From an uncultured bacterium (GTDB lineage: Bacteria > DAOPZR01): a DNA stretch of 35,946 bases. Position numbers and translations under genes: made by a program. The notes beneath the pieces were generated by a model. It made no database searches. It saw nothing but the letters and a program-made list of their open reading frames with translations, and was not told the DNA's origin. Positions 5,905 to 29,973 of this stretch are shown in pieces. The stretch is from NCBI GenBank assembly GCA_964637655.1, contig CAZWUZ010000006.1:1-35946 (forward strand), in the 5' to 3' direction. Every line of letters begins with the position of its first letter. The stretch's first letter is position 1.

Positions 5905-5973
5905 GTCGTGCCTTTCCCGGAGAGCATAGCATAGGCCGGTATTTCAGCCAAATGTTGCCGCTGGCTTAAAGGT

Positions 5974-6795
5974 ATGTTACAAACTAGTCGAGTCACGGAG
6001 GCGAAGATGGACGGAAATCTGGCGGCGCGGTTCTACTCGAAATTCGGGGCGTTGGGGTGGAGGTTGTTTCGTCGCCGACGGTGGAACCGTGAACAGCTGA
6101 CGGCCATGGTGGCGGCCCAGGGTGAATGGGTCCATGACATTGAGTTGCCCTTCGGGATTTCGACGGGCGGGCTCAAGGTTTTTCCCGATCATGCGCAATT
6201 TCGCTGGCAGTTCATCCGCGATTATGTGCTCCGGCACTGTGCAGGTGAGTCTTTTCTCGATGTCGGTTGCAGTGACGGTTTTTTCTGCCATGAAGCGCGC
6301 AAGGCGGGCGCGTCGTATGTCCTGGGAATCGACGAGCATGGCCCATCATTGGTCCGGGCCCGGATCGCCGCGGACGCGCTCGGCCGCTGGATCGAATATC
6401 GCCAGGCCAGCGTCTACGACCTGCCGCGCCTGCGCTTCGTTCCGAAACAGTTTGATAACATCTTGTTTCTCGGGGTTTTTTACCATTTGCGCCATCCCTT
6501 GCTGGCTCTGGATATTCTTTTCGCGCGGGCGCGGAAACGGATATTCCTGCATTCGATGATCAAGGGTCCCACGGAACCGGTCGCAGTGGATGCGGATTAC
6601 CACCTCGGCGAAGAGAAAGTGTTTTTCCGGCCGGGTTTTCCGAAACTGCACTTCATCCGGGGAAATTTTGCTTACGATGAAACCTCGAAGATCTGGTGGG
6701 TACCCAACGCCAACGGCCTGCGGGAAATCGTGCACAGCTATCCGTTCCGGAACATCATCGAACTTCGCCCGGATATGTATATCCTCGAAAAATAG
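5974..6795 (+). CDS. class I SAM-dependent methyltransferase (DUF1698/CmoB-like fold)
   Basis: Motifs LDVGCSDGFF (motif I) and LGIDEHGPSL, plus FLGVFYHLRHP, are typical of the CmoB-like MTase family. An alternative start ATG at 6007 has GGAGG 5 nt upstream. Confidence 0.8.
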   Translation: MLQTSRVTEAKMDGNLAARFYSKFGALGWRLFRRRRWNREQLTAMVAAQGEWVHDIELPFGISTGGLKVFPDHAQFRWQFIRDYVLRHCAGESFLDVGCSDGFFCHEARKAGASYVLGIDEHGPSLVRARIAADALGRWIEYRQASVYDLPRLRFVPKQFDNILFLGVFYHLRHPLLALDILFARARKRIFLHSMIKGPTEPVAVDADYHLGEEKVFFRPGFPKLHFIRGNFAYDETSKIWWVPNANGLREIVHSYPFRNIIELRPDMYILEK

Positions 6796-6842
6796 CGGTC
6801 ATCCGGCTTGCGCGGTGTTGTTTCGGCAAGTATAGTTGGACT

Positions 6843-8048
6843 ATGTTTAGCGATCGAATAAGAAATCGCCTGGCGAGTTACCGGCTGTACTGCGGGGTGC
6901 GGCACGGGGCAAGGGCTTTTGCCGCGCCGTACCGGTTCTCGCTGTGCCCGACCTATCGCTGCAATCTGCGCTGTTCCGCCTGCTGGTGCTATTCGCCGCT
7001 GGTGGGTGAGCGCGGACTGGCGCCGGAACTGCGGCAGCAGGAAGTTCCGTATGCGCGCCTTGAAAAACTGGTGCGGGACCTGCTGGCGCAGGGAACGGTG
7101 TATTTTTCCGTTTCGGGCGGGGGCGAGCCGCTGCTCTATCCGCAGATCCTGCCGCTGCTCCGCCTGATCAAGCACAACCCGCGTATCCGCTGCGATCTTA
7201 ACACCAATTTCACCGTGGCGACGGAGGAAGTGATTGAAACCCTGGTGGCTTGCGCGGTCGACGCGGTGATTGTCAGCGTGTGGGCGGGCACGCCGGAGAC
7301 CTATGCCGCGGTCCATCCGGGCGCGCCGGACGGCCTGTTTGCGAAGATGACGGCTGATTTGCGCCGCCTGAACCACCTGCGGCGCGAACGCGGCGCGGCC
7401 ATGGAGGTGGTGGTCAATCACGTGGTGTACCGCGACAACTGGCGCGAGTTTCCCGCCCTGGTCGAGTACGCCTACCTGACCGGCTCGACCCAATTGCGTT
7501 TCACGCATGTCGATATCGTCGCGGGCAGGACCGACGCGCTGGCTTTGACTGAGGAAACGCGGTTATCGCTGCTGGCGCAAGCGGAGCGGATAGCTGATTT
7601 GCAGCGGGAATATGAGGTGCGGCACGGCTGCCGGGTGGTCCTGGTCGAGTTCGACCAGTTCCTGCGGCGCTTGCGCCGGACCGGGCCGGCGGCCGGCCAA
7701 TACGACGCCCCGGTGATGCGGCGGCATCAATGCTACGCGGGCTGGGGTTTCTTCCAGTTGTTTCCCGACGGGAACTTTAATTCATGCTGTCGCATCGTTG
7801 AACCCCGCGGCAACCTGGCGCAGAATGATTTTGCCGTGGTATGGAACGGGCCCGGACAGCAGGCATTCCGCCGCCTGACCCGCGACCTTGACCGGGAAAA
7901 GGTTGATGCCCATAACCTGCCCTGCGGCGGGTTATGCGATAACCTGCAGGACACGCGGCATGTGGCGCAGCGGCTTGCCGCCTTGACGAAACCGGAGCGT
8001 CTGCTGCTGGATCTGCTGTGCGGTCGCGCGCCCGGGACCGGACAATGA
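6843..8048 (+). CDS. radical SAM enzyme with full C-terminal SPASM domain
   Basis: CxxxCxxC motif CPTYRCNLRCSAC near the N-terminus, then a GGGEPLL glycine-rich SAM motif. C-terminal cysteines (CYAGWGF...CCRIVEP...GN...C...CGGLCDN) fit a SPASM auxiliary-cluster domain. The first ATG after the upstream stop is 6843; the track ORF at 6696 overlaps the preceding gene. Confidence 0.85.
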   Translation: MFSDRIRNRLASYRLYCGVRHGARAFAAPYRFSLCPTYRCNLRCSACWCYSPLVGERGLAPELRQQEVPYARLEKLVRDLLAQGTVYFSVSGGGEPLLYPQILPLLRLIKHNPRIRCDLNTNFTVATEEVIETLVACAVDAVIVSVWAGTPETYAAVHPGAPDGLFAKMTADLRRLNHLRRERGAAMEVVVNHVVYRDNWREFPALVEYAYLTGSTQLRFTHVDIVAGRTDALALTEETRLSLLAQAERIADLQREYEVRHGCRVVLVEFDQFLRRLRRTGPAAGQYDAPVMRRHQCYAGWGFFQLFPDGNFNSCCRIVEPRGNLAQNDFAVVWNGPGQQAFRRLTRDLDREKVDAHNLPCGGLCDNLQDTRHVAQRLAALTKPERLLLDLLCGRAPGTGQ

Positions 8049-9169
8049 AGGCGCGGTTGCGGGATGCCTGGCGACGGGCCCGGTCCGGGAATTACCGTTC
8101 CGGCCTTTTCCACCCCGCTGAGGCGCGGTTTCTGTCGGTGTTTCTGGAACTGCATAACTGGTGCGCGACGAAATGTAAAATGTGCCATCACGGGTTCCTG
8201 CCCGACCCGGTGCCGGCGAGCATGGCGCCCGCGGATTATCGCCGGCTGGCGGCCAATGTCTTCTCCCATGTGGCGGAAATAACTTTCTGCCCCGGCATGG
8301 AGCCGCTGGCGCATCCGCACTTCATCGAATACCTGGAAATGGCGAAACAGGAATATGGCGTCCCGCATATGGCGATGATGTCGAATTTTACGATAATGGA
8401 CGAACCGTCGGCGCGCAGCATAATCCGCAACGGGGTCGAGCGCATCCAGATTTCCCTTGACACTTTCCAGCCCGAGCTCTATGCGTGGATAAAAACCAAT
8501 GCCCGGCTGGAGCCGGTGCTGGAGAATATCCGCCTTTTCCAGCGGGTCCGGCGGCGGATGGAAGTTCCGGGGCCGGAACTGGAGGCGAATTTCGTCATCA
8601 TGCGGCGCACGGTGGCGGCCTACAGCGGAGAATACTTTGCCTGGTTGCGGGAACTTGGTTTTACCCGGGTTCACCTGTGGCATCTGCATATCAACAAGCT
8701 GGCAACTTCGCTGCGCGGTGAATCGATGTGGGAGCACAAGGAAGAATACAACGAGTTTCACGGCCGGGTGCGGCGTGACGCGGCGGCCAACGGCATTGAA
8801 CTATTCCGCCTGCCGGAACCGTTCACGCTGCCGGGCGCGCCATTTTCGCCGCCAGCCGCGGGTGAAACCCGGAAATGTACTTTCCCCTGGCACAAGATTC
8901 AGGCCTTGCATAACGGCACCTTCACCCCGTGCGAGTTCTGGCACAACGAACCGTTCTGGGGTAACCTGTTCGAGCGGCCGTTCATGGATATCTGGAACGA
9001 CCTCGACTACCGGCGCCTGCGCTGGGAAATCAACACGGGCAACCTGACCCGCCGCTGTTGCCGAAACTGCGTTTCGATGTCATCATTGGCCGGCCGCGCC
9101 GATGACGCGGCGGCGTTCGTGGAAATCGATACGAGCGCCACTGATCCGGCGGGGGCGAAAGGAAATTGA
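8045..9169 (+). CDS. radical SAM enzyme, twitch/partial-SPASM type (paralog 1)
   Basis: CxxxCxxC motif CATKCKMCHHGF. C-terminal cysteines CEFWHNEPFWGNL ... CCRNCVSM (C-x9-GNL ... CCxxC). ATG 8045 overlaps the upstream stop (ATGA). Confidence 0.85.
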   Translation: MKARLRDAWRRARSGNYRSGLFHPAEARFLSVFLELHNWCATKCKMCHHGFLPDPVPASMAPADYRRLAANVFSHVAEITFCPGMEPLAHPHFIEYLEMAKQEYGVPHMAMMSNFTIMDEPSARSIIRNGVERIQISLDTFQPELYAWIKTNARLEPVLENIRLFQRVRRRMEVPGPELEANFVIMRRTVAAYSGEYFAWLRELGFTRVHLWHLHINKLATSLRGESMWEHKEEYNEFHGRVRRDAAANGIELFRLPEPFTLPGAPFSPPAAGETRKCTFPWHKIQALHNGTFTPCEFWHNEPFWGNLFERPFMDIWNDLDYRRLRWEINTGNLTRRCCRNCVSMSSLAGRADDAAAFVEIDTSATDPAGAKGN

Positions 9170-9171
9170 TC

Positions 9172-10332
9172 ATGGTTGACCAGACCGTGCTGTCCCGCCT
9201 GCTGCACAGCCGGGCCGTGCAGCGGATAAAGAATGAAATGCCGCCGGCGGTTGTGGCGCGACTGAAGCTGATGATCCCGGGCTATCACCGGCACCTCCGG
9301 TTTATCCCGCCGCGCGAGCGGTTCCTTACGGTCGTCATGGACCTGCAGAACAGCTGCAACCTCGCCTGCAAGATGTGTCACTTCGGTTTTCTTGGCGATT
9401 ACCCGAAGGAACCGTATGCTATTTCTCCGGCTAATTTCCGCCGTTTTGCCGATAATGTCCTTACCCGCACGGAGGAAATAGCCTTCTCGCCGTGCACGGA
9501 ACCGCTCATGCACCCGCAGTACGGGGAACTGCTCGACATCCTGGCCGAGTATCGCGTGCCGAAAATGTGGATGATGACCAACCTCAACCTGCTCACCCCG
9601 GCGATTGCGGAAAAGCTGGTGGCGATGCGCTTCGAGCGACTGCTGATCTCGCTCGACAGCTTCCGGCCGGAGGTTTACGAGTCGATCAAATGCAAGTCGA
9701 ATTTTGCGCGGGTGATCGATAATATCAAGATGGTCCAGGACATCAAACGCCGCACCGGCAGCGTGTACCCGAAAATCCATTTCAATTTCGTGCTGATGAA
9801 AACCACGGTCGACAATTATCCCGGCTACCTTGATTTCGTCGAATCGATTGGCGGGGAGCAGGTCGGCTTTTTCCATGTCGTGGTCTACCAGGGCGTGGAG
9901 AAGATGCGGGGCGAGAGCATGTGGCATCACCGCGAGCTGTACAACCGTTTTCATGATCAGGTGACGGCCGATGCGCGGCGCACGGGGATAAATATCGAAC
10001 GGCTGCCGGGAAAATTCGGGCAACCCGCCGCACCTGCCGACTGCGGTGCGGATGCCGGCGCTCCGCTGTGCCGCTATCCGTGGTATATCCTCGTGGTCTA
10101 TCCGCAGGGTAGTTTTAAACCCTGCGAATTCTGGTTCAACCAGAAGGTCTGGGGCAACCTGGTTACCGACCGTTTTGAGGATGTCTGGAACAGCGAGGAC
10201 TACCGCCGCCTGCGCTGGGAAGTCGATACGCGCCGGCCGTCGCGGTCCTGCTGCCGGAACTGCGTGTCCATGGCCGCGCTCGACGGCAGACCCGGCAGTG
10301 GCGATGCCTTCCGCGAGATTGTCTTCGAATGA
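9172..10332 (+). CDS. radical SAM enzyme, twitch/partial-SPASM type (paralog 2)
   Basis: Collinear paralog of 8045..9169, with CNLACKMCHFGF, SLD, CEFWFNQKVWGNL, YRRLRWE and CCRNCVSM all conserved. ATG at 9172 lies 10 nt after AGGA. The track ORF start at 9166 is a TTG overlapping the upstream stop. Confidence 0.85.
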   Translation: MVDQTVLSRLLHSRAVQRIKNEMPPAVVARLKLMIPGYHRHLRFIPPRERFLTVVMDLQNSCNLACKMCHFGFLGDYPKEPYAISPANFRRFADNVLTRTEEIAFSPCTEPLMHPQYGELLDILAEYRVPKMWMMTNLNLLTPAIAEKLVAMRFERLLISLDSFRPEVYESIKCKSNFARVIDNIKMVQDIKRRTGSVYPKIHFNFVLMKTTVDNYPGYLDFVESIGGEQVGFFHVVVYQGVEKMRGESMWHHRELYNRFHDQVTADARRTGINIERLPGKFGQPAAPADCGADAGAPLCRYPWYILVVYPQGSFKPCEFWFNQKVWGNLVTDRFEDVWNSEDYRRLRWEVDTRRPSRSCCRNCVSMAALDGRPGSGDAFREIVFE

Positions 10333-13055
10333 CCGATATCACTATCATCATCACGCCCTATACCATCATCAATTACCCTGCCATTGGTATCGGGTACCTG
10401 TATGCCTTTCTTACCGGGCGCGGCTACACCGTGCGGGTCATTGACTTGTCCAGCATGCTGCAAACCAGGTACCGTGAAAAACTTGCCGACAACCCGGCGG
10501 ACCGTGAACTGTGGCTCGATGAGCGGCGGGTGGCGGCGGTATTTGCCGGTTTGGAGGGGCAGGGGTGGTTCCGGGAACTGCTGGCCGTGATAACCAGCCC
10601 GCTGGTGGGGTTCACTTTATTTGACCCGTGCGTGCTGAGCGCCTGTCGCATGGCGCGCCTGTTGCGCGCGCGCCGGCCGGAAGTGAAAATTATCGCCGGC
10701 GGTCCGCGCGTCATTGACCCGGACTGGTGCGGCAGCCTGATCCCGCCGGAACCGCTGTTCGATGCCTTTGTCCATGGCGAGGGCGAGCTGGCGCTGGCGG
10801 CCCTGGTGGCGGCGGAAAAGGCGGGCGAATGGGGGCGGGCCATTCCCGGAGTTTCGTATGTGGTCGACGGCGGCCGGCGGCCGGGTCCGGCCGCCGAACC
10901 GGTTGCCGACCTGGATTCCCTGCCAATGCCCTCGTTTGCCTGGGCGAAGGAATTTCGCTATTTCACGGACCAGCTGCCCCTGCTGTTCAGTCGCGGGTGC
11001 ATCAGTCGCTGCATGTTTTGCGATGTCGATCGCTATTGGCCGGCGTTCCGGCAGCGTTCGGCCGCCTCGATGGCCGCCGAGGTTGAGCGGCAGGTCCGGG
11101 AGCACGGGACCAATGAGTTCTATTTCTGCGATTCCCTGATCAATGCCAATCCGCGCCGGCTTGAGGAGTTTTGCCGGCTGATCGTTGCCCGTGGCGTGAC
11201 GGTAGAATTCCACGGGATTGGCATCACCCGGGGCATGACGCCGGAACTGCTGCGCCTGATGTACGCGGCGGGGTTCCGCGTCTTTGAATACGGGGTCGAA
11301 AGCGGGTCGCAGCGGGTCCTGACGGCTATGCGGAAGCTGCACGCGGCGGCGGATATCGGGCCGACCATCCGCGCGACGGCTCAGGCCGGGATCAAGGCGA
11401 ATATTGACCTCATCGTCGGGTTTCCCGGAGAGACCGAAGATGACTTCCGCGCGACCTGCGACATGGTGCGGGATAATGCGCGCTGGATCAGCAAGGTGGT
11501 GGGACTCGACTGCTGCAATCTGGGCCGGGACCGCGCGGCGGCCCGCGGCCTGGACAAGGCCTATGGCATGACCTACCGCGGTGCCGGCTCGCATGACGAC
11601 TGGTCGGACGCGCACGGCAATACGCCGGAAAGCCGCACCCGACGGAAACTGGAACTGTACCGTTTGATTCGCGAGCTTAACCTGCCGGTCAGTGAATATG
11701 TGCATTCGCTGGAAATGGCGTCGCGCCGCCGACTGGGGCTGGCCGACGCTCACGACCGGGAGGAATACCTCGCGGCTTCCGGGCGCCGGGCTGCCCGGGT
11801 ATTGCGGCCGGACGGGCTGCGGCGCATCGCGGTGGTCGACCTGCTCTTCCAATGGCCGCCCGATGGCGGCGCCCGCACGGATGTGAAGGAGATCACCGCC
11901 CGCCTCGCCCGCGATTACGAGGTGAAACTCTTTGTGCCGGACCTGGATTTCGTGTTCCCGCGCGGGCGTGGGGCGGAACTGCCGGGTTTCCCGGTGGAAA
12001 AGGTCCCGACTTCCCCTCTGAGTTTTAACGCACTTGAATTCCCTGAGCGTTTGCGCGCGGCGGTGGGAAACTTCGCGCCCGACCTGGTATTCTTCACCGA
12101 CGGCTGGTACATGAAGACCCCGGTGCTGCGCAGTTTCGCTGATTACCGCTATGTCATCCGCTTCTATGCTTATGAAGGGCTTTGCTTGCGTCAGCACGGC
12201 ACCTTTTTCGTCAACGACCGGCTCTGCCGGCGCGATTACCTGAAGAACGGCGGCGATGAATGGCTGGCCTGCACCGAGTGCGCGCTGGCCTGGTTATGGC
12301 AGTCGCGGAGCAAGGTGTTTGCGCAGGAATACCTTGCCAGCGGCGCCTTCCTGCCCGGACACCGGCGGCGGGTGCGCAGCACCCTGCGCCAGGCGGCGGG
12401 GATCGTCTGCTATAACGATTACATCCGGGAAAAGCTGCAACCGTACAATCAAAAGGTGTTTATCTGTCCGAGCGGCATCGATCCCGACCTGTTCGCCTAT
12501 CGCGAGGGGCGGGAAACCGACCTGCTTCGACAGGATAGCATCACCCTGCTGATGGCCGGGCGGGTTTCCGACCGGGGCAAAGGGTATCATACGCTGCGGG
12601 CGGCCTACGACAAACTGAAAAAACGCTACCCGCAGCTGCGCCTGATGGTCACGCGCGAGACGGTTTATAACCGCACGGACCGCGACGTGATAACCTTCGA
12701 CTGGCAGACGCAGGAGAATCTGCCGGCGCTGTACGCGCAGGCGGACATTTGCGTGGTCCCGTCGGTGTGGCCGGAACCGTTCGGTATTGTCGCGCTCGAG
12801 GCGATGGCCAGCGGTGTGCCGGTGGTGGTGGCCGCGTCCGGCGGACTGCAGCATATCGTTGCCGACGGGGTGGATGGTCTGGTGTTTGCCGCGGGCGATG
12901 CCGATGACCTGGCAGCGAAACTGGAGTTGCTGATCAGCAATGCGCAACTCTATCGCCGGGTGCGCGAACGGGCGCGGGGCAAGGCCGAGACATACAATTG
13001 GGAACGGGTCTATTGCCAGGTACGTGAAGCGCTCGAAACAGCTTATCGCGTTTGA
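10329..13055 (+). CDS. bifunctional B12-binding radical SAM enzyme (N) / GT4 family glycosyltransferase (C)
   Basis: N-terminus carries a B12-binding domain (IIAGGP...) and an rSAM cysteine motif FSRGCISRCMFCDV with a TIM-barrel region (IVGFPGETEDD). The C-terminal ~350 aa is a GT-B/GT4 retaining glycosyltransferase (VVPSVWPEPFGIVALEAMASGVPVV, the E-x7-E region). 908 aa. ATGA overlap with the upstream gene. Confidence 0.85.
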   Translation: MTDITIIITPYTIINYPAIGIGYLYAFLTGRGYTVRVIDLSSMLQTRYREKLADNPADRELWLDERRVAAVFAGLEGQGWFRELLAVITSPLVGFTLFDPCVLSACRMARLLRARRPEVKIIAGGPRVIDPDWCGSLIPPEPLFDAFVHGEGELALAALVAAEKAGEWGRAIPGVSYVVDGGRRPGPAAEPVADLDSLPMPSFAWAKEFRYFTDQLPLLFSRGCISRCMFCDVDRYWPAFRQRSAASMAAEVERQVREHGTNEFYFCDSLINANPRRLEEFCRLIVARGVTVEFHGIGITRGMTPELLRLMYAAGFRVFEYGVESGSQRVLTAMRKLHAAADIGPTIRATAQAGIKANIDLIVGFPGETEDDFRATCDMVRDNARWISKVVGLDCCNLGRDRAAARGLDKAYGMTYRGAGSHDDWSDAHGNTPESRTRRKLELYRLIRELNLPVSEYVHSLEMASRRRLGLADAHDREEYLAASGRRAARVLRPDGLRRIAVVDLLFQWPPDGGARTDVKEITARLARDYEVKLFVPDLDFVFPRGRGAELPGFPVEKVPTSPLSFNALEFPERLRAAVGNFAPDLVFFTDGWYMKTPVLRSFADYRYVIRFYAYEGLCLRQHGTFFVNDRLCRRDYLKNGGDEWLACTECALAWLWQSRSKVFAQEYLASGAFLPGHRRRVRSTLRQAAGIVCYNDYIREKLQPYNQKVFICPSGIDPDLFAYREGRETDLLRQDSITLLMAGRVSDRGKGYHTLRAAYDKLKKRYPQLRLMVTRETVYNRTDRDVITFDWQTQENLPALYAQADICVVPSVWPEPFGIVALEAMASGVPVVVAASGGLQHIVADGVDGLVFAAGDADDLAAKLELLISNAQLYRRVRERARGKAETYNWERVYCQVREALETAYRV

Positions 13056-13070
13056 TGCCGCCGCCTGAGA

Positions 13071-14807
13071 TCAGGTGCGCGGGGCGAGTCGGCGCAGCAG
13101 CGGCTTGAGCAGATCGATGGCATGGATGAGCCGCGCCTGCAGCATGGTGTCACCGAAGCCATCGAGATTGATGTCCCGCTGCGGCAATGCGGTGCGGCCG
13201 ACCGGCTGCAGGCGGCCGAGCTGGGCGAGCACGACGGTCTGCACGCCGGTGTAATTCCATAACCCGTCATCCGTAAGTCTGAGTTCAGCCTGCACCTCGT
13301 GTGCGATGGCCTGCAGGGACCGGTTGCCGTCGCAGCGCCGGTAGAACGCATGCAGAAACGCGAGTAATTCAGCCGTGCGTGTGACGCGCAAGAGCGGCGA
13401 ACTGCCGGGCGGAGTGAAGCCGTACTGCGTGGCGATCTGGGCCTTGACGCAGATCAGCAGGTCGCGATAGGTCAGTTCCGGGGTCTGCTGTTGCGGGCGT
13501 TCGTCCAGCAGGGTGCGCGGCAGGAAATTCACGCGGTGATGGTAATAGTCGCGCCAGGTCCGGGTGTTGACCAATCCGAGCCGGGACGCGTCGGCATGCA
13601 ATTGCGTGCCCGGGTGGGGGGTGCAGAGCTGGCCGACATACAACGGCACCGGCATGTGATGGAAATGGGCAATCGGGTCGCAGCCAGCCAGCATGGCATC
13701 GATGAACTCGGCCTGGCGGTAATAAGTTTGCAGGGTATCACCGGGATTGAGCGCCATGTAGGTGAACAGGGGAACGAGTCCGGCGCGCTTGAGCAGTTCC
13801 GCCGCGATTCGGGTATCGGCCAAATCATCATCCTTGTGCACCGCCGCGCTGGCTTGCGGGTCGGCGCTTTCGATGCCCATTTCCAACCCGAGGCAGCCGG
13901 CGCGCTTGAGGAGGGGCAGCAGGTCGCCGCAGGCGCGGACATGGGCGGCGCGGGTCAGGCCAATCCAGCGGGTGTCCGGGGCGCGGGCGATGAGCAGTTC
14001 ACACAGGCGGGTGACCTGCCCGCGGTCGAGCAGCAGGTTATCATCCCAGAAATGGATGCTGGTCAGGCCGTATTGGCGGCGGATGGCGATGATTTCATCG
14101 ACGATATTGTCCGGCGAGCGCCAGCGCAGGCGCCGTCGCCAGAAAACCGGCGAAACGCAGTACGAACAGTTGTAGGGACAGCCGCGCGAGCCGATGACCG
14201 GCATGCGCCGGCCGCCGATGAGGTGCAGCGGCGTGTCGTAGTTGGCGAGCGGCATAAGGTCCCAGGCGGGGAAAGGCAGGGCGTCGAGGTCGGGCAGCAG
14301 TTCCCGCTCCCCGGTGAATGCCGGTTTCCCGTCGGCCGCGCGATACCACAGGCCGCGGATGCCGGCCGGGTCGCCGCCGCGGTTCAGGTCCCGGATGAGT
14401 TCGGGCAGCGTTGCCTCCGCTTCGCCGACGACAACAAAATCAGCGAAAGCCAGCGCGGCGGCGGGAAAAATGCTGGGATGCACACCCCCGGCGATGACCC
14501 GGGATCCGGCGGGCAGCAGCGGCCGCGCGCGGCGGGCCAGTTCCTCCGCGGCGTCCGCCATCGGGGTCCAGTAGGAGAGGCAGAGCAGGTCGGGCGCGGC
14601 GGCGGCGATGCGCGGCAGGGCGTCGGCGACGGTGAGGTTGCCCGACTGCAGGTCGAGAAACTGCAGGTTGAGGCCGGGCAGGTCGCGGCGCAGGACGGCC
14701 ATGAGATAGGCGATCCCGAGCGGCATCACCCGTTTGTGCCGGGCATTGACCTCGAGCGGCGGCTGGATGAACAGCACGGAGCGGACCGGCGAAGCTGGGC
14801 GGTTCAT
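13071..14807 (-). CDS. B12-binding radical SAM enzyme (class B)
   Basis: N-terminus MNRPASPVRSVLFIQPP...MPLGIAYLMAVL is a B12-binding domain. Cysteine motif IGSRGCPYNCSYCVSP. Start ATG at 14805-14807 (minus) overlaps the stop of the upstream GT4 (ATGA). The longer track ORF to 15197 is an N-terminal read-through artefact overlapping that GT4. Confidence 0.85.
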   Translation of the reverse strand: MNRPASPVRSVLFIQPPLEVNARHKRVMPLGIAYLMAVLRRDLPGLNLQFLDLQSGNLTVADALPRIAAAAPDLLCLSYWTPMADAAEELARRARPLLPAGSRVIAGGVHPSIFPAAALAFADFVVVGEAEATLPELIRDLNRGGDPAGIRGLWYRAADGKPAFTGERELLPDLDALPFPAWDLMPLANYDTPLHLIGGRRMPVIGSRGCPYNCSYCVSPVFWRRRLRWRSPDNIVDEIIAIRRQYGLTSIHFWDDNLLLDRGQVTRLCELLIARAPDTRWIGLTRAAHVRACGDLLPLLKRAGCLGLEMGIESADPQASAAVHKDDDLADTRIAAELLKRAGLVPLFTYMALNPGDTLQTYYRQAEFIDAMLAGCDPIAHFHHMPVPLYVGQLCTPHPGTQLHADASRLGLVNTRTWRDYYHHRVNFLPRTLLDERPQQQTPELTYRDLLICVKAQIATQYGFTPPGSSPLLRVTRTAELLAFLHAFYRRCDGNRSLQAIAHEVQAELRLTDDGLWNYTGVQTVVLAQLGRLQPVGRTALPQRDINLDGFGDTMLQARLIHAIDLLKPLLRRLAPRT

Positions 14808-15925
14808 GCGTTGGTATGCCGGGTGATGATTTCCGCGAGCTGGCGGGCGAGTACGGGCAGGGCATAGCGGGCGACACAATCGTCGTGCGCGGTCTCGGCC
14901 AGTCGCGGGTAAAGGGACGGTTCGGTGAGCAGGGCGCGGCACTGGCGCACGAAGCTGGCGCGGTCGCGGAAGAGCAGGCCGTTGTCGCCGTCGCGGATGA
15001 CGCGGCGGATTTCCCCGAAATCGCTGGCCAGGACCGGCAGACCGGCAGCCATGAACTCGAATATTTTGGTCGGACTCTTGGCCGCCATCCACTGCGCGTT
15101 GGCGGGGTCGGGCAGCAGCGGCACCAGACCGACATGGCAGTTTTTCAGGAAACCGGGCATGTCCCGCGGCGGCAGCGCGCCGGCGAAATGCACCCAACTT
15201 TCATCGCCGTGCCGGCGCACGTGTTCAATTACTGCGGGGAACCATTCGCCGTCGCCGGCCAACCGCAGCGTGAGCGGGTGCGTATTGCGCACTTCGCGCA
15301 GCGCGTCGATCAGGAATACAACATTGTCATGCATCACTTTTCCCCAGATCATGCCGGTCCATGCGAATGTCGGGGTGGCAGGCAGGGTGCACGGTTGGAA
15401 AACAAACCGGCTGGTATCGACCCCGGTGGGCAGGTAATGGACTTCCGGGTGCCATTGCCGCAGCAACTCGACCAGCGCGTGGCTGGCGGCCACGCAGCAG
15501 CGGGCATGGCGCGCTACCGCGGCGGTGACGCCGGTCGCATCGGTGGCGCCGAAAATCAAGCGGTTGACGGCCGCGGAGAAGAGCGGGGAACGGTCGAGGT
15601 CCCAGTCATCGTAATCGAGGATATAGGGCAAGCCGCACAGGCGGTGCAGCAGGAACGGCGCGGCGGCATGGTAGTGGACCTTCTGCAGGTAGAGCATGGC
15701 GCCGGCCTTGGGCAGGCGGCGCAAGGCGCGCAGGGTCAGGCGCAGTCGTTCCCGCTGCGGCAGGTCGAGCATGCGGGTGCCATCGGTTATGTCGGTGAGG
15801 TGTTCCTGAAAGGAAAACACCCCCGCATCCAGTCCGGCGCGGCGGAGCGAATCGGCGAAATGATAGCAGCGAACGCGGGTATAAGGTTTGCCGTAATCGG
15901 TCAAGCCGACGAAAATGTGGCGCAT
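14804..15925 (-). CDS. GT4 family glycosyltransferase
   Basis: GT-B fold with a C-terminal GT4 motif (EFMAAGLPVLASDFGEIRRVIRDGDNGLLF). 373 aa. ATG at 15923-15925 (minus). Confidence 0.8.
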   Translation of the reverse strand: MRHIFVGLTDYGKPYTRVRCYHFADSLRRAGLDAGVFSFQEHLTDITDGTRMLDLPQRERLRLTLRALRRLPKAGAMLYLQKVHYHAAAPFLLHRLCGLPYILDYDDWDLDRSPLFSAAVNRLIFGATDATGVTAAVARHARCCVAASHALVELLRQWHPEVHYLPTGVDTSRFVFQPCTLPATPTFAWTGMIWGKVMHDNVVFLIDALREVRNTHPLTLRLAGDGEWFPAVIEHVRRHGDESWVHFAGALPPRDMPGFLKNCHVGLVPLLPDPANAQWMAAKSPTKIFEFMAAGLPVLASDFGEIRRVIRDGDNGLLFRDRASFVRQCRALLTEPSLYPRLAETAHDDCVARYALPVLARQLAEIITRHTNA

Positions 15926-15934
15926 GAGGTGGGC

Positions 15935-17434
15935 TCAGCCGCGCAACAGGCCGGCGAACGCGTTGAGGATTTTCTTGCCCGCCAGGAGCAGGCGGAAAAC
16001 GAACCGGTTCTTGATTCGGGCGACATCAGCCATGAGCGCTGAATATTCAGTGGATAAGGCGCTGAATTGGCCCTGCTTGCGTTCGAGATCGTGCCGGCAG
16101 TCGGCAAGCTGGTGATTCAAAAGGGATATTTCGTGGCGGCGGTCAGTCAGTTGCCGGTTAAGCTCAGTTGCTTGTTGGTTAAGCTCAGTTGCTTGCCGGT
16201 TAAGCTCAGCCACGGTATTGAGAAAGCGTTCGCGCTGGCTGCGGTTGTTGTCGATGCCGCGCAGCAGGGAGCGGCTCATACGGCTGATGTGGTCGGTTTT
16301 ATTGCGCAATTTCACCGGGTTGGCGCAGAAGCGGGCGAGTGCGGCGGTGGCGGCGACCGGGTCGAAACATTCCGTCGCCAGTCGCTGCGCATTGGCGCCT
16401 TTGCGGGCGCAGATGGCCGGACTGGCAAAAATTTCGTCCAGCACAGCGGTGAGCTGCTCACTGTCGGCCGGGTCGATGACCCAACCGGCGTCGTACCGGT
16501 GGATCAGGTCGCTGTAATACATCCCTTCGCTGTAGATGACCGGCAGGCCGTGGTGGAGGTATTCGACGGTGCGCGTGGTTGAGGCCAGTTCGCGTTCGGG
16601 ATTGGGTAGGTACAGTTCAACGGCGGCGGAAGCGGTCAGCAGATGCTCGTGAAAATTTTCGTGGCTGACCAATCCGCTGATGGTCACCGTCGGCTGGCCC
16701 GCCAGGCCAGCCAAACGCCGGTCGCTGTTGCGGTAGACGAAATCGCCGGCGCAGACCCGGAGCCGCCCGTTATGCCGGTGGCAGTAGTCGGCGATGGTGT
16801 TTAGCGAATCGCCGTAGTCGAGCCAGCGCCAAAGAACGCTCCCGAAAAATAATTCCGGTGGCGACGGGTATTCCCGGTGCCGCGGCGGTTCGCCGGCGCT
16901 GCTCAGCGGGCAGAGTGCGACCGGGTCGCGCTGCAGGTCGACCCCGGCCAGCATCAGGAACGGATACAGGTAGGCCTTCTGGCGGGGATTGGAGACGAGG
17001 AAAAGGTCGCCAAGGTGCAGGGTGGCGAGTTTTTTCTGGATGAAGAGGAAGTCGGCTTCGCGCTGCTCAAAGACGTTTTCCAGGGTAAGCGAGGCCGGCA
17101 GGTCGAAGACGATGGGGATGTCGCGGTTGGCCGTGTCCGGGGTAAAGGCCAGTGCGATAGTCCAGGGGGAAAACAGGATGCAATCGGGTTTGACCGAGGC
17201 GATGACTTCATTATGGTTGGCGTTGTCATGCGCCAGGTCCAGCCATTCTGCGTGAGGCGAAATGTTGTTGTGCTGTTGTAAAAAGTCGATGTTCGATTGC
17301 TGAAAGGAAATACGTACTGTATGCCCGTGCTGGCGCAAGCCGTGGCTCAGGGCATTGATGCGAACTCCGCGCCCGCCCGTGGGTATGCCAGGCAACGGAG
17401 TGAGTTCGGAAGTAAAAATCAGAATTGTGGCCAT
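15935..17434 (-). CDS. glycosyltransferase (GT-B-like N-domain) with C-terminal coiled-coil containing heptad tandem repeats and a terminal amphipathic helix
   Basis: N-terminus MATILIFTSELTPLPGIPTGGRG is GT-B-like. The C-terminal ~110 aa are coiled-coil (ELNRQATELNQQATELNRQLT...), ending in RFVFRLLLAGKKILNAFAGLL. ATG at 17432-17434 overlaps the Wzt stop (TGATG). The upstream track extension to 17620 overlaps wzt and is rejected. Confidence 0.75.
   Translation of the reverse strand: MATILIFTSELTPLPGIPTGGRGVRINALSHGLRQHGHTVRISFQQSNIDFLQQHNNISPHAEWLDLAHDNANHNEVIASVKPDCILFSPWTIALAFTPDTANRDIPIVFDLPASLTLENVFEQREADFLFIQKKLATLHLGDLFLVSNPRQKAYLYPFLMLAGVDLQRDPVALCPLSSAGEPPRHREYPSPPELFFGSVLWRWLDYGDSLNTIADYCHRHNGRLRVCAGDFVYRNSDRRLAGLAGQPTVTISGLVSHENFHEHLLTASAAVELYLPNPERELASTTRTVEYLHHGLPVIYSEGMYYSDLIHRYDAGWVIDPADSEQLTAVLDEIFASPAICARKGANAQRLATECFDPVAATAALARFCANPVKLRNKTDHISRMSRSLLRGIDNNRSQRERFLNTVAELNRQATELNQQATELNRQLTDRRHEISLLNHQLADCRHDLERKQGQFSALSTEYSALMADVARIKNRFVFRLLLAGKKILNAFAGLLRG
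16151..16213. repeat. 21-bp tandem repeat (about 2.9 copies) ttgccggttaagctcagttgc inside the coiled-coil coding region
   Basis: Direct reading of 16151-16171, 16172-16192 (2 mismatches) and 16193-16213 (partial). The unit length is a multiple of 3, so on the minus strand it encodes ATELNRQ heptads. Confidence 0.9.
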
Positions 17435-18177
17435 CAGGCGTGTCCGGTCGTGGCGGTGAGGAATTGCCGGATGGTCTCCGGGGCCGGTCCGGAAGTAACG
17501 AGATGGCCGTGGTCGAGCCAGATAACCCGGTCGCACAGGGCCTCCACCGCGGGCATCATGTGCGAGACGATGATGATGGTCTTGTGCTGACGCTTGAGGT
17601 CGAGGATATGGGCGCTGCACTTCTCCTGAAAGGCGGGGTCGCCCACAGCGATGATTTCATCGATGAGCAGCAAATCGAAGGGGACATGGATGGCGATGGC
17701 GAAACCGAGGCGCAGGCACATGCCCGACGAATAGGTATAGAGCCGGGTGTTGATGAAATCGCCCAGGCCGGAAAATTCGACGATGGCGGAAAAGCGCGCG
17801 TCGATTTCCGCGCGGGTCAGCCCGAGGATACTGGCGTTGAGGTAAACATTCTCGCGCCCGGTCAGTTCGGGATGGAAACCCGCCCCGAGCTCGAGCAGTG
17901 AGGAAATCGCGCCGTTGACCGCGACGCCGCCCGCGGTCGGGGTGGTGACTCCGGCGATCGCCTTGAGCATGGTACTCTTGCCGGAACCGTTGGAGCCGAT
18001 AATGCCGAGGCATTCGCCGCGCGCGGCGGTAAAAGACACGTCACGCAGCGCCCAGAACTCACGGAATGTGCCGACGCCGATGAGCGCGGGCAGCACGGAG
18101 CGGATAAGCGACGGCTTCTCGAAGTACACCCGGTAGCGCTTGCTGACGCCGGCGACGGCGAGGACAGGGTCAGACAT
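17434..18177 (-). CDS. wzt: ABC-2 type polysaccharide/glycan exporter ATP-binding protein (Wzt/KpsT/TagH-like), short form without C-terminal carbohydrate-binding domain
   Basis: Walker A GSNGSGKST, ABC signature YSSGM, Walker B LLLIDE. 247 aa, i.e. the nucleotide-binding domain only. ATG at 18175-18177 (minus) overlaps the wzm 3' end by 8 nt. Confidence 0.9.
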   Translation of the reverse strand: MSDPVLAVAGVSKRYRVYFEKPSLIRSVLPALIGVGTFREFWALRDVSFTAARGECLGIIGSNGSGKSTMLKAIAGVTTPTAGGVAVNGAISSLLELGAGFHPELTGRENVYLNASILGLTRAEIDARFSAIVEFSGLGDFINTRLYTYSSGMCLRLGFAIAIHVPFDLLLIDEIIAVGDPAFQEKCSAHILDLKRQHKTIIIVSHMMPAVEALCDRVIWLDHGHLVTSGPAPETIRQFLTATTGHA

Positions 18178-18946
18178 GGTCGGCCAGGTTGTGCCGCAGG
18201 CGGCGGAAGACCAGCCAGCCGCCGAACCCGAAGAAGAGGCAGACGGCGATGGTGAAGGTGGTTAGTTGCCGCGAGGGGAACATGCCGTTGATGATCAGGT
18301 CGCGGTAGAGCACGGTGAGCCCCGCCATGGGATTGAGCAGGAAAATGTAGAGCAGCTGCTTGGAAATGCCCTGCACCAGTTCGAGCGGGTAGAAGATCGG
18401 GGTCAGGTAAAACCATAACAGCAGGGCGATTTCGACGACATAGCGGGTGTCGCGGCAATAGACCTGCGCCGCCGCCACCACGAGGGCGAGGCCGAGGGTG
18501 AAAACCAGTTGCAGCAGCATGACCAGCGGCACCGCCAGCAGATACCACGACCAGCGGATATCGAAAAGCAGTAAAACCAGCATGGACAGGGCAAAATTGA
18601 TGAAATTGGCCAATACCACCGAGGCGGGCAGTAGTTCCCGGGGAAAACGGACCTTTTTTATCAGGTTGCCGTTATCGACTATGCTGCCGACCACTGTGGC
18701 GATGGTGAGGGAAAAGAAGGTCCAGGGGAAGAGCCCGGCGAGCAGGAAGGTCGGGGTGATGTCGAATTTCATCAGGTACTTGAAAACGATGAGAAAGACA
18801 CCCATGAGCGCGAGCGGCACGACCAGCGACCAGAGGAAACCCAGCCAGCTGCTCTTGTAGCGGACCTTGAGTTCCTTGAAGGCGAGGGTGCAGAGCAGCT
18901 CCCAGCGCTGCCGCCACCCCGGTGCGGTCGTCTGCATGGGGGCCAT
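18170..18946 (-). CDS. wzm: ABC-2 type transporter permease (Wzm-like)
   Basis: Hydrophobic 6-TM protein with the ABC-2 permease signature region (FLWSLVVPLALMGVFLIVFKY..., LNPMAG). Start chosen at ATG 18944-18946 (MAPMQTT), after the upstream stop at 18970. ATG 18937 is also possible. Confidence 0.8.
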   Translation of the reverse strand: MAPMQTTAPGWRQRWELLCTLAFKELKVRYKSSWLGFLWSLVVPLALMGVFLIVFKYLMKFDITPTFLLAGLFPWTFFSLTIATVVGSIVDNGNLIKKVRFPRELLPASVVLANFINFALSMLVLLLFDIRWSWYLLAVPLVMLLQLVFTLGLALVVAAAQVYCRDTRYVVEIALLLWFYLTPIFYPLELVQGISKQLLYIFLLNPMAGLTVLYRDLIINGMFPSRQLTTFTIAVCLFFGFGGWLVFRRLRHNLADHV

Positions 18947-18969
18947 TGTAGCGTCGGGAACGCGGGCTG

Positions 18970-19830
18970 TCAACGCGGGCGGGGGAGAAACGCGGCCAGC
19001 CAGGCGGCGGGATAGAATAGTGAGGCACCGCGTGTGGCCGGCAGGTCGGTCAGCGCGCGGAGCAGCGACCAGCCGAGCAGCCACACTTCATGCCATAGCA
19101 GGCGCGGCAGGCGGCGGGCAAGTTCTGCGGCGGGCAGTTTCAGCAGCATGCGCCGCCGCGCATATTCCTGCCGGTAGAACCGGCGCAGCGAACGCTGCCG
19201 CCCCATCGTGCCGCCCCACGCGTGCGTGGCGGTGAATGACGGATGCACGGCGACCGTGTGCCCAGTGCGACGCAGCCGCCACGACAGGTCGACATCCTCG
19301 TAATACCACAACCGGGTATCCCAGCCGCCGGCAGCGTCGACCGCGGCGCGGCGCCAAAGCGCGCAGGCGCTGCAGAGCGCGTCGACGGCAACCGATGCCG
19401 TGGCGGCCGGGGGCGCCAGCAACACGGTCGTGGCGGCGGGAGTGATCCGGGCGCCGGCGTTGTGCACGGTGCCGTCAGGGCAGCGCAGCACCGGCTGCAC
19501 CGCGGCGAGCGCCGGGTCGGTGTCGAGCGCGGCCACCATGCCGGCCAGCGTTGCCGCGTCGATGACCGCGTCGGTGTCAAGGGTGAGCACGTATGGCGCG
19601 CTCCCTTGCGCCCACGCGGCGGCGCGCGCGGCGGACGGGCCACCGCGCCGCGGCAGGCGCATGACCTGCACGCGCATGTCATGCGGCAGCGCCTCCGCGG
19701 TGCCGTCGGTCGAAACATCGTCGCCGACAGTGATGGCGGCGACGCCGGGCAGCGGCAGCAATTGCGGCAGCAGCGCCGCGAGGCGGTCGCGCTGGTTATG
19801 CGCGGGAATGACGATATCGATGGTGGTCAT
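18970..19830 (-). CDS. GT2 family glycosyltransferase
   Basis: Begins at MTTIDIVIPAHNQ, with DDVSTDGT (the D-x-D region) and later YYEDVDLSWR, all typical of the GT-A/GT2 fold. The ATG overlaps the upstream stop (ATGA at 19827-19830). The track N-extension to 19974 is rejected. Confidence 0.8.
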   Translation of the reverse strand: MTTIDIVIPAHNQRDRLAALLPQLLPLPGVAAITVGDDVSTDGTAEALPHDMRVQVMRLPRRGGPSAARAAAWAQGSAPYVLTLDTDAVIDAATLAGMVAALDTDPALAAVQPVLRCPDGTVHNAGARITPAATTVLLAPPAATASVAVDALCSACALWRRAAVDAAGGWDTRLWYYEDVDLSWRLRRTGHTVAVHPSFTATHAWGGTMGRQRSLRRFYRQEYARRRMLLKLPAAELARRLPRLLWHEVWLLGWSLLRALTDLPATRGASLFYPAAWLAAFLPRPR

Positions 19831-27621: not shown

Positions 27622-27658
27622 AGGTCGTCTCCCTCCATGGAGTCGGTTGCTGCTCGAT

Positions 27659-27686
27659 ATATCGGCAGCAGCGCCCGTATACTTTA
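27659..27686 (-). promoter_or_regulatory. sigma-28 (FliA/SigD)-type promoter upstream of fliD
   Basis: Minus strand reads TAAA-N16-GCCGATAT (plus-strand coordinates 27683-27686 and 27659-27666). It matches the class III flagellar promoter consensus TAAA-N15-GCCGATAA/T and lies about 40 nt upstream of the fliD ATG. Confidence 0.55.
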
Positions 27687-27752
27687 TATGCCGGCAGAAT
27701 AAACGATACAATTAGAGCAAAACAGAGAGATATAACGATACAAAAAAGCCGG

Positions 27753-27781: not shown

Positions 27782-27877
27782 GAGCGCTGTACCCCAACTG
27801 CATATCCGTACCGGAACGCATTACCGGCCGCCGTGCGCGGCCGCGCCCATACACCTGCTGGTGGAAGGAGTTTCCGC

Positions 27878-29959: not shown

Positions 29960-29973
29960 CCGCGGGCTGACCC

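Follow-up and report, generated by a model that had tools for sequence, protein, structure and literature searches.

The window, a stretch of 35,946 nucleotides of DNA from an uncultured bacterium, contains a single ATG-to-TGA open reading frame (ORF) of 908 aa in which a class-B, cobalamin-type radical SAM (rSAM) enzyme is followed by a complete GT4 glycosyltransferase. Both domains are confirmed to be intact within one continuous frame, as the earlier note had claimed, and on balance we favor the view that the ORF is a genuine fusion of two neighboring, translationally coupled genes that gives rise to a bifunctional enzyme of an ABC-transporter–type glycan pathway. The exact fusion is a singleton, and the joining of an rSAM enzyme to a glycosyltransferase as such is already present, uncharacterized, in the databases.

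Results

The start ATG of the ORF overlaps the stop codon of the upstream SPASM-domain rSAM gene S3 (ATGA), and its product consists of a class-B radical SAM half (aa 1 to ∼470), a linker of ∼30 aa, and the GT4 half (Table 1). The coding signal is unbroken along the ORF, with a GC3 of 0.66 to 0.88 in all 50-codon windows, and the two alternative frames contain many stops along its length; the domain E-values of 1e-20 to 1e-30 are far beyond chance.

Table 1. Features of the fusion ORF and of the surrounding locus, with positions in the window.
Feature	Position (nt)	Strand	Basis
FkbM methyltransferase + HpnJ-like B12 radical SAM (rA) fusion, 795 aa	3517..5904	-	
SAM-dependent methyltransferase, TIGR04290-like, below family cut-off	5974..6795	+	
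SPASM radical SAM S1	6696..8048	+	
SPASM radical SAM S2	8018..9169	+	
SPASM radical SAM S3, translationally coupled to fusion ORF	9166..10332	+	
Fusion ORF (class-B radical SAM + GT4)	10329..13055	+	ORF listing, Pfam
Rossmann-like domain of cobalamin-binding type, aa 1-165	10329..10823	+	Pfam, profile, model/Foldseek, conserved columns
Radical SAM core, aa 219-379	10983..11465	+	Pfam, alignment
Arg/Ala-rich linker, ~aa 470-497	11736..11819	+	alignment, model
Complete GT4 glycosyltransferase, aa 498-908	11820..13052	+	profile, alignment
Four family-conserved cysteines of the GT4 N-domain, C619, C633, C648, C651	12183..12281	+	alignment
EX7E catalytic motif, E816...E824 (EPFGIVALE)	12774..12800	+	alignment
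Stand-alone B12 radical SAM rG	13071..14807	-	
GT4 gtH	14804..15925	-	
Remaining glycan locus	15935..21877	-	
561-aa protein with weak GT match, two GT2 genes, one GT4	within 15935..21877	-	
ABC ATPase	17434-18177	-	
ABC-2 permease	18170-19084	-	

The N-terminal half (rF) begins with a Rossmann-like domain that carries GGP at aa 124 and GEGE at aa 150 and whose match to the Pfam B12-binding family (aa 92–160) reaches 28.0 bits, slightly below the cut-off of 32.1. The core that follows matches Radical_SAM (PF04055) at 73.3 bits against a cut-off of 29.5, and the motif quoted in the earlier note, FSRGCISRCMFCDV, is present, with the CX3CX2C at aa 224–231 (nt 10998–11021) being the [4Fe-4S]-binding motif of the radical SAM superfamily; none of its three cysteines, C224, C228, and C231, varies among the 31 sequences of the family alignment. 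The family profile matches TokK, CysS, TsrM, and OxsB at E-values of 1e-28 to 1e-30, within a range of 1e-27 to 1e-34 for structurally characterized class-B enzymes as a group, and the match to TsrM spans chain residues 5–398. A Foldseek search with the structure model of the half (pLDDT 89) places six class-B enzymes first among the distinct targets, namely TsrM, MgmA, OxsB, AprD4, CysS, and TokK (E-values of 1e-16 to 1e-20, query-normalized TM-scores of 0.55–0.68, 13–19% sequence identity). These six have, like rF, an N-terminal Rossmann-like domain and a radical SAM barrel, but glycosyltransferase domains are absent from all of them; they act on antibiotics, peptides, or nucleotides rather than surface glycans, AprD4 on a glycosylated aminoglycoside. 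From profile and model, the class-B assignment is firm despite the weak Pfam score, and the use of cobalamin is itself a prediction, since no motif in the sequence is diagnostic for it and some enzymes of this fold do not use it; AprD4, for example, is not known to. All curated NCBIfam equivalogs are distant from rF, the best-scoring being ApyD (NF050148), at 109.7 bits against a cut-off of 750, and rSAM_ocin_1 (TIGR03975) reaches 101 bits against 281.85. The fusion protein likewise falls short of BchE (TIGR02026; 100.9 bits against 481.35) and HpnJ (TIGR03471; 71.6 bits against 577.6).

The C-terminal half (gtF) exceeds both GT4 profile cut-offs, with 105.8 bits against 26.4 for Glycos_transf_1 (aa 732–883) and 39 bits against 28.5 for Glyco_transf_4 (aa 513–595), and the assignment made in the earlier note therefore stands. 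Stand-alone GT4s of ∼400–420 aa can be aligned with it over the full length at 35–52% identity, and its profile matches GT4 structures at E-values of 1e-38 to 1e-26. The N-terminal GG loop is conserved, and the GT4 family alignment shows no variation at either glutamate of the EX7E motif or at the donor-diphosphate basic residues R745 and K751. PimA, MshA, the sucrose-phosphate synthase Tll1590, and PglA-type enzymes share with gtF the GT-B/GT4 C-domain, the EX7E motif, and the donor-binding residues, but the gtF subfamily differs from them in having its own N-domain signature, LLFxWPPDGGARTD (aa 505–518), and a four-cysteine insert. Three of the four cysteines are invariant among 32 sequences and one is kept in at least 90% of them, and the group is a possible metal site. 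The named GT4 equivalogs MshA, BshA, EpsE, and GlcN-PG synthase give 60–73 bits against cut-offs of 273–480.

The two halves meet at ∼nt 11810–11825 (aa 495–500), between RPDGL and RRIAVVDLLF, and the region that had been proposed for a check of the frame, 11900–12100, misses this junction. The linker matches in length the C-terminal tail of stand-alone rSAM homologues, and its residues 487–497 are modeled with a pLDDT below 50.

The fusion ORF belongs to a cassette of eight modules, a family defined in this analysis and not a published one, that comprises the B12-rSAMs rA, rF, and rG, the SPASM-rSAMs S1–S3, and the GT4s gtF and gtH. The start ATG of rG overlaps the stop of the upstream gtH gene (ATGA). 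The rA module matches the HpnJ model over positions 4–439 of 472 with 232 bits (E-value 1e-68; cut-off 577.6). The window carries Wzm/Wzt-like ABC genes besides GT2 and GT4 genes, and in this genome the cassette sits inside an ABC-transporter–type glycan locus; related loci bear Wzy_C, GNVR, and Wzt_C genes.

A comparator with the two enzymes encoded separately is the Dependentiae locus L001, in which an rF of 499 aa (38% identity) is followed by a gtF of 409 aa (47% identity) with a 4-nt ATGA overlap, and which has the same two SPASM genes upstream, the order S-S-rF-gtF being common to L001 and the window. All eight cassette modules can be paired between the two loci at 38–56% identity, and both halves of the fusion find their best reciprocal-type matches there, although the fusions of the modules differ, L001 having rA+gtH (856 aa) and rG+S1 (1005 aa). 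In locus L003 a B12-rSAM gene likewise precedes gtF with a 4-nt overlap. More broadly, among GTDB loci a B12-rSAM gene lies within 2.5 kb in 10 of 15 when the GT4 shares 40% identity or more, and in 6 of 52 when it shares 30–39%. The adjacency of the split orthologues in the same order, together with the 10 loci, strongly supports the proposal of the earlier note that the fusion reflects functional coupling. Because in other bacteria both enzymes are separate neighbors in a conserved, unstudied gene set for sugar building with several radical enzymes, the fusion helps to point to that pathway and is not a lone oddity.

Other fusions of this kind occur in public data. There are at least eight clusters of rSAM+GT4 proteins (rA+gtH and GT2+rA+gtH), one of which has six member sequences across four contigs, and at least 12 clusters of rSAM+GT2 proteins (rA+GT2). 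Proteins P0302 (MBP7652288.1, Candidatus Dependentiae), P0304, P0305, and P0306 are rSAM+GT4 fusions, P0307–P0310 are GT2+rSAM+GT4, and P0082 is GT2+rA+gtF. As in the fusion ORF, the rSAM domain precedes the GT4 with a short linker and the loci are of glycan type; P0082 has a GT4 of the same gtF-type subfamily, including the four cysteines, and P0302 is located in the same cassette as split orthologues of the fusion protein. They differ from it in that the rSAM of P0082, P0302, and P0304–P0310 is of the HpnJ-like rA type, and the GT4 of P0302–P0310 is of the gtH type. These proteins are unstudied and are annotated merely as "radical SAM protein." The belief that the architecture had not been described thus holds insofar as no member is characterized and a literature search found no paper describing any rSAM–glycosyltransferase fusion, but the architecture is not unique, since the databases hold other B12-rSAM+GT4, GT2+rSAM+GT4, and rSAM+GT2 proteins.

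Discussion

Because no rSAM–glycosyltransferase fusion has been characterized, the activity of the two domains, the substrate, the order of steps, and the chemistry are proposed here by analogy. The predicted retaining GT4 domain would use a nucleotide sugar as donor to add a residue to a glycolipid or lipid-linked glycan intermediate, and the tethered cobalamin-type radical SAM domain would then carry out radical chemistry on that residue or on a neighboring one, with C-methylation as the likeliest reaction and deoxygenation or rearrangement as alternatives. The fusion enzyme probably works in a larger assembly with other cassette enzymes. The sugar-tailoring role put forward in the earlier note, with action on the growing glycan or on the donor, is likewise an inference, and the evidence leaves acceptor-level and donor-level radical chemistry undistinguished.

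The nearest described logic is that of HpnI/HpnK/HpnJ, which make the cyclitol ether of bacteriohopanetetrol, and of the calditol synthase Cds, where a glycosyltransferase puts a sugar on a lipid and a radical SAM enzyme is proposed to rework the lipid-attached sugar in place (PMC13459092). HpnJ is a B12-domain rSAM that the cassette partner rA resembles, and the proteins of both systems are separate, unlike the fusion ORF. HpnI is moreover a GT2 and not a GT4. It is possible, though unlikely, that the fusion is real and that its product is such a small glycolipid head group, a carbocycle resembling a cyclitol or calditol that would arise when a sugar newly attached to a lipid undergoes radical ring contraction. 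The likeness of rA to HpnJ extends across the whole model, and the best solved GT4 relatives of gtF include the lipid- and inositol-directed PimA and MshA. In addition, fusions of rA with a GT2 or GT4 domain occur repeatedly, echoing the pairing of the glycosyltransferase HpnI with HpnJ (PMC13459092). The L001 cassette stands alone, adjoining housekeeping genes on a 13.8-kb contig with no polymerase or transporter genes, and for this reason the cassette product could be a small glycoconjugate rather than a polymer. However, rA lies far under the HpnJ cut-off and rF scores just 72 bits; the window and several related loci contain Wzm/Wzt, Wzt_C, Wzy_C, GNVR, and extra glycosyltransferases, which is typical of polymer assembly, and no hopanoid or ether-lipid genes were seen in the window.

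Substrate channeling, in which the radical domain would modify the nucleotide-sugar donor and then pass it to the fused GT4, is quite unlikely. There are precedents in DesII and OxsB, which act on nucleotide-linked sugars; OxsB, with its nucleotide substrate, is among the best structural matches, nucleotide-sugar epimerase/dehydratase genes occur in the related locus L002, and the fusion is equally compatible with chemistry on the donor. Against this, the matched class-B sugar enzymes of known substrate act after glycosylation, AprD4, matched in complex with paromamine, and HpnJ by proposal, as do GenK and GenD1, and the cluster in the window has no nucleotide-sugar synthesis genes.

An error of sequencing or assembly is an unlikely origin of the fusion; in that case rF and gtF would in truth be two genes with an ATGA-type overlap, and the error would have removed the stop or shifted the frame. 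The fused rF+gtF state is known from this one contig only, because no close relative of the exact fusion was found among 15 billion proteins, the GTDB representatives, or the contig index, and the nearest orthologues, L001 and L003, are split. The join is also seamless, neither half being longer or shorter than its stand-alone counterparts, which is how a lost stop would look, and since all three frames are free of stops between 11696 and 11884, a shift of frame in this stretch would go unseen. Yet a single indel could not recreate a separate rF gene, because there is no stop near the junction, the next ones lying at 11884 and 12026, both within the GT4, and the position of the GT4 initiator methionine is occupied by CTG (Leu), not by a start codon ATG, GTG, or TTG. 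Elsewhere in the locus the genes are intact and keep their ATGA couplings, and independent assemblies repeatedly contain equivalent fusions between related modules.

Maturation of a peptide (a RiPP or glycopeptide) that the GT4s would glycosylate is hardly plausible, for although peptides are what SPASM enzymes and ApyD-like B12-rSAMs typically modify, the cassette has three SPASM-domain rSAMs, and the best NCBIfam matches of rF are the RiPP enzymes ApyD and rSAM_ocin_1 (110 and 101 bits), these scores are far under the cut-offs of 750 and 282, the genes are tightly packed with no short precursor-like gene called in 3517–21877 or in the L001 or L003 gene tables, there are no protease or leader-recognition genes, and every context is of glycan type.

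For the preferred reading, a bifunctional enzyme of glycan assembly, one wider extension can be offered tentatively, as less probable than the reading itself. The fusion may be one edge of an undescribed, widespread system in which up to six rSAMs and two or three glycosyltransferases act as one physical assembly that builds and radically reworks sugars on a lipid-linked glycan, by multiple C-methylations, deoxygenations, or carbocycle formation, in Dependentiae, Acidobacteriota, Omnitrophota, Nitrososphaeria, and DPANN archaea. If so, the fusions rF+gtF, rA+gtH, GT2+rA+gtF, rG+S1, rA+rF, and rA+S1+rF would map contacts inside the assembly, and the system would tailor glycans in a new way and produce sugar structures so far undescribed. 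Cobalamin-type radical SAM enzymes carry out some of the hardest known reactions, on unactivated carbons, and to our knowledge they act on sugars almost only in antibiotic pathways and in hopanoid or archaeal lipid head groups. The link to a glycosyltransferase, the split orthologues, and the alternative fusions together are strong genomic evidence for the operation of such chemistry in cell-surface glycan assembly, too, across many uncultivated lineages; were the radical step to act on a lipid-linked glycan, the known repertoire of post-glycosylation tailoring would be widened. The fusion offers an expressible entry point with both predicted activities on one polypeptide, and the eight-module cassette, which is the more interesting lead, gives a defined set for tracing the product and its reactions.

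Fusion of a radical SAM enzyme and a GT4 glycosyltransferase in one open reading frame

The fusion of a B12-type radical SAM domain (module rF) to a GT4 glycosyltransferase domain (module gtF), read by the earlier note from the sequence, stands as stated: the ORF listing gives a single frame, Pfam families for both enzymes match its translation, the quoted radical SAM motif is present, and the C-terminal half matches glycosyltransferase HMMs (see table). GC3 lies between 0.66 and 0.88 in all 50-codon windows from the start of the fusion to its stop, and the two alternative frames carry 26 and 27 stops across the ORF, with the stretch from 11696 to 11884 stop-free in all frames. In the alignment to stand-alone relatives the two halves meet between aa 497 and aa 498, nt ~11820 (...AARVLRPDGL/RRIAVVDLLFQWPPDGGARTD), and the region proposed for inspection in the earlier note, 11900-12100, is therefore slightly off. 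Free GT4s start M-x-[KR]-I-A-x-x-D-L-L-F-N-W-P-P-D-G-G-A-R-T-D, and the codon at this initiator position in the fusion is CTG. The C-termini of stand-alone radical SAM relatives lie 10-35 residues past the last conserved helix, and the Arg/Ala-rich stretch of the fusion (aa ~470-497), the sole low-confidence part of the N-half model, is simply their tail. Two separate genes are not easily recreated from this ORF by one indel or substitution error, and it is therefore quite improbable that the fusion is an artefact of two genes that are separate in the organism. An internal start for a separate GT4 was considered at an in-frame TTG (11802) and a GTG (near 11832), and is unsupported, with no Shine-Dalgarno-like motif found by eye.

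Features of the fusion, the cassette and neighboring genes
Feature	Window position (nt)	Strand	Fusion position (aa)	Details
Fusion ORF	10329..13055	+		ATG to TGA, 908 aa
B12-binding (Pfam)			92-160	28.0 bits, slightly below cut-off of 32.1
Radical_SAM (Pfam)			219-379	73.3 bits, cut-off 29.5
CX3CX2C motif			224-231	
Glyco_transf_4 (Pfam)			513-595	39 bits
Four cysteines	12183-12281		619-651	C619, C633, C648, C651; N-domain of GT4
Glycos_transf_1 (Pfam)			732-883	105.8 bits
EX7E motif of GT4			816-824	
Memo-like + AMMECR1 fusion	2043-3509	+		488 aa
Cassette	3517-15925			
FkbM methyltransferase + rA fusion	3517-5904	-		795 aa; FkbM aa ~88-230, HpnJ-like B12 radical SAM aa ~315-770
gtH and rG	13071-15925	-		unfused, GT-then-radical SAM order; ATGA overlap 14804-14807
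561-aa protein	15935-17620	-		marginal C-terminal GT4-like match and coiled-coil-like match only
fliD (flagellar cap)	26206-27711	-		lone, no flagellin gene beside it
Flotillin/SPFH-like gene	27833-29959	+		by eye (membrane-anchored, long coiled coil); no Pfam match
DUF3686 + DUF7902 + AAA ATPase	29974-35598	+		1874 aa
Opposite-strand ORF	10617-12197	-		526 aa
Opposite-strand ORF	29680-33063			1127 aa
Antisense ORF	33340-35412			

Relationship of the two halves to known families

The fusion protein belongs to the radical SAM superfamily, with class-B (cobalamin-type) architecture, and is also a GT4; its nearest true relatives are uncharacterized database proteins. The fusion fails all curated equivalogs tested (HpnJ, ApyD, BchE, MshA and others), and NCBIfam B12-radical SAM families match the N-half at sub-threshold scores throughout (ApyD, 110 bits; rSAM_ocin_1, 101; BchE, 101; PhpK, 90; HpnJ, 72), which places the N-half outside every curated equivalog. 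In a 31-sequence alignment of the N-half family (A3), the GG pair (124-125), D145 and C224/C228/C231 are invariant and GEGE nearly so. The A3 profile matches MgmA (9ccb; 5e-34), TokK (4e-30), CysS, TsrM, OxsB and AprD4, and its match to TsrM spans residues 5-398 and thus includes the cobalamin domain. Single-sequence AlphaFold modeling of the full-length protein gave a pLDDT of 38, and in a combined alignment MAFFT placed radical SAM homologues over the GT half, so the N-half was modeled alone. The resulting A3-based model (pLDDT 89.2, pTM 0.89) has TsrM, MgmA, OxsB, AprD4, CysS and TokK as its best Foldseek matches (E 1e-16 to 1e-20, TMq 0.55-0.68). Because of these profile and structural matches the class-B architecture of the N-half is established, while its use of cobalamin is only predicted. 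No RNA family, cobalamin riboswitches included, was found in an Rfam scan of the window.

The C-half is a full GT4. A 32-sequence GT4 alignment (A1) keeps the N-terminal GG loop, R745/K751, the EX7E motif and the four cysteines, and its profile matches Tll1590, MshA, PimA, GlgA and PglA-type GT4s with E-values of 1e-38 to 1e-22. The cysteines, spaced C-x13-C-x14-C-x2-C, are common to the gtF GT4 subfamily and to the multidomain database protein P0082, and may form a candidate Zn or Fe-S site in the glycosyltransferase N-domain.

Split orthologues and synteny of the cassette

The decisive evidence for coupling of the radical SAM and GT4 domains is synteny, and the functional link claimed in the earlier note proves real and conserved across split orthologues, shared modules and GTDB neighborhoods. 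The closest GT4 relative, P0054, lies on a Candidatus Dependentiae contig (locus L001, GCA_017999075.1) in the order 856-aa B12-radical SAM+GT, 1005-aa B12-radical SAM+radical SAM/SPASM, two SPASM-radical SAMs, 499-aa radical SAM and P0054, with a 4-nt overlap between the last two genes. Compared by BLAST, the proteins of L001 and of the window prove to share eight modules in different packaging: rF and gtF, fused in the window, are split in L001 (38% and 47% identity); the window's FkbM+rA and free gtH correspond to a fused rA+gtH (41% and 38%); its free rG and free S1 correspond to a fused rG+S1 (51% and 46%); and S2 and S3 are found in both (45% and 56%). A second related locus, L003, has a fused rG+S1 and a B12-radical SAM gene whose end overlaps gtF by 4 nt; gtF lies between rG and rA in L087 and adjoins a divergent rF-like gene in L086. 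The rF/gtF-type junctions of L001 and L003 are ATGA overlaps, and in the window the pairs S3/fusion and gtH/rG are ATGA-coupled as well. The gtH/rG pair is convergent to the fused radical SAM-GT pair, and the listed 708-aa ORF of rG is over-extended, its likely start being the ATG at 14807.

Among GTDB representatives, the GT4 alignment recovered 80 loci, none with an in-frame fusion of a radical SAM to gtF. GT4 identity reaches 40% or more in 15 GTDB loci, and ten of them have a B12-radical SAM gene within 2.5 kb, directly adjacent in seven of the ten, compared with 6 of 52 loci in the 30-39% identity tier. The pattern is a classic Rosetta-stone case: the cassette modules work as a functional group, and evolution has tied them to each other in many ways, of which the fusion in the window is one.

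Rarity of the fusion and related architectures

Among 5.8 billion proteins searched by word index the fusion sequence is a singleton, with no second protein carrying both domain types among its matches, and neither an exact-protein contig look-up nor a whole-protein GTDB scan found an independent copy. Matches from an exhaustive HMMER search over 1.84 billion cluster representatives fall into three groups: free GT4s of 400-430 aa aligned end-to-end on aa 498-903 (P0056, 50%; P0054, 47%), free B12-radical SAMs of ~450-500 aa on aa 2-468 (P0061, 38%), and giant proteins with two to four radical SAM copies in tandem. Only one other protein in this search, P0082, covers both halves; it has 1405 aa arranged as GT2 + B12 + radical SAM + GT4, and its radical SAM is of the rA type, unlike that of the fusion. 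Among the best 120 matches to P0302, a fusion in a related locus, PF04055 is combined with PF00534 in eight clusters, these being rA+gtH (856-915 aa) and GT2+rA+gtH (~1385 aa), and with PF00535 in 12; the cluster P0304 holds six member sequences from four contigs. Radical SAM-glycosyltransferase fusions are therefore recurrent, and all are annotated as nothing beyond 'radical SAM protein'. The suggestion that the architecture is new holds insofar as a full-text literature search found no published description of a radical SAM-glycosyltransferase fusion or of the cassette; it does not hold in the sense of uniqueness, since other such fusions are in the databases. The wider cassette, with its network of fusions, is a more interesting lead than the single fusion.

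Other combinations were also seen. P0047-P0053 and others (1500-2300 aa) carry three or four rF-like B12-radical SAM domains in tandem, and archaeal proteins (Nitrososphaeria, Nanoarchaeota, Woesearchaeota) join rA+rF, rA+S1+rF or rA+S1, so that the module set spans Bacteria and Archaea. The FkbM+rA protein is a second unusual fusion of the window's locus, and an FkbM domain is absent from the best 120 rA homologues.

Glycan locus and proposed reaction order

The cassette runs on without break into further glycan-type genes, comprising the 561-aa weak-GT protein, an ABC ATPase and ABC-2 permease (Wzt/Wzm-like), two GT2 and one GT4, followed by two sulfatases. The 561-aa protein, placed beside the ABC transporter genes, could serve in chain-length control or termination. 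Related loci carry other genes of glycan assembly: L084 has Wzy_C and GNVR/Wzz-like genes, L003 has Wzy_C, and L002 has nucleotide-sugar epimerase, GT2 and GT4 genes. The P0199 contig (Logan SRR14699981) carries, in order, GT4, gtF, B12-radical SAM, Wzm, Wzt with a Wzt_C carbohydrate-binding domain, and a methyltransferase. Wzt_C domains recognize a cap at the end of the glycan chain, which hints that the radical-modified residue might be a chain-end signal of that kind.

Locus L085 (Logan SRR22388008) is 91% identical in nucleotides to window positions 1153-3505, over der and the Memo/AMMECR1 gene; this synteny stops exactly at 3505, where the window's cluster starts, and L085 continues with an AmmeMemoRadiSam-type radical SAM/SPASM gene in place of the glycan cluster. 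The cluster therefore behaves as a variable island, and breaks of that kind are the behavior of variable surface-glycan loci. A tRNA scan of the window found no tRNA marking the island boundary. A flagellin-glycosylation island, suggested by fliD, was set aside, there being no flagellin gene and an ABC-2 exporter in the locus, with sulfatase and amylase-like genes parting fliD from the glycan genes. A role for the SPASM genes as anaerobic maturases of the nearby sulfatases was likewise rejected, with no anSME family among their NCBIfam matches.

Both catalytic centers of the fusion are intact by motif, with a short flexible tail alone between the two domains. By analogy with known sugar-modifying systems, the GT4 domain would attach a hexose to an intermediate carried on a lipid, after which the added residue or its neighbor would be modified by the tethered radical domain, most likely through C-methylation; the other radical SAMs and methyltransferases would make additional changes, and the ABC transporter would then export the product. 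HpnI/HpnJ would share this logic, which the fusion condenses into a single chain. The GT-then-radical order is favored because those class-B enzymes whose sugar substrates are known take glycosylated substrates, as does AprD4, one of the class-B matches, which acts on paromamine. GenK and GenD1 likewise act after glycosylation. For HpnJ the proposed substrate is glucosaminyl-bacteriohopanetetrol, and with calditol synthase too the sugar is reworked by radical chemistry after a glycosyltransferase step (PMC13459092). The reverse order, in which the radical step would take place on the donor and the modified donor would be channeled into the GT4, is a live alternative, and so is a product that is a small glycolipid head group. 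The substrate is unlikely to be a peptide; gene calling shows no short precursor-like gene within the cluster or among the genes tabulated for L001 and L003.

Other genes of the window

The Memo-like/AMMECR1 gene has no adjacent radical SAM activase gene, its usual partner, in the window. The fliD, flotillin/SPFH-like and 1874-aa ATPase genes are unrelated to the fusion. The long antisense ORFs stem from a GC content of 62-72%; those at 29680-33063 and 33340-35412 were both scanned and have no family matches, and the 526-aa ORF was judged spurious because it overlaps the fusion ORF.
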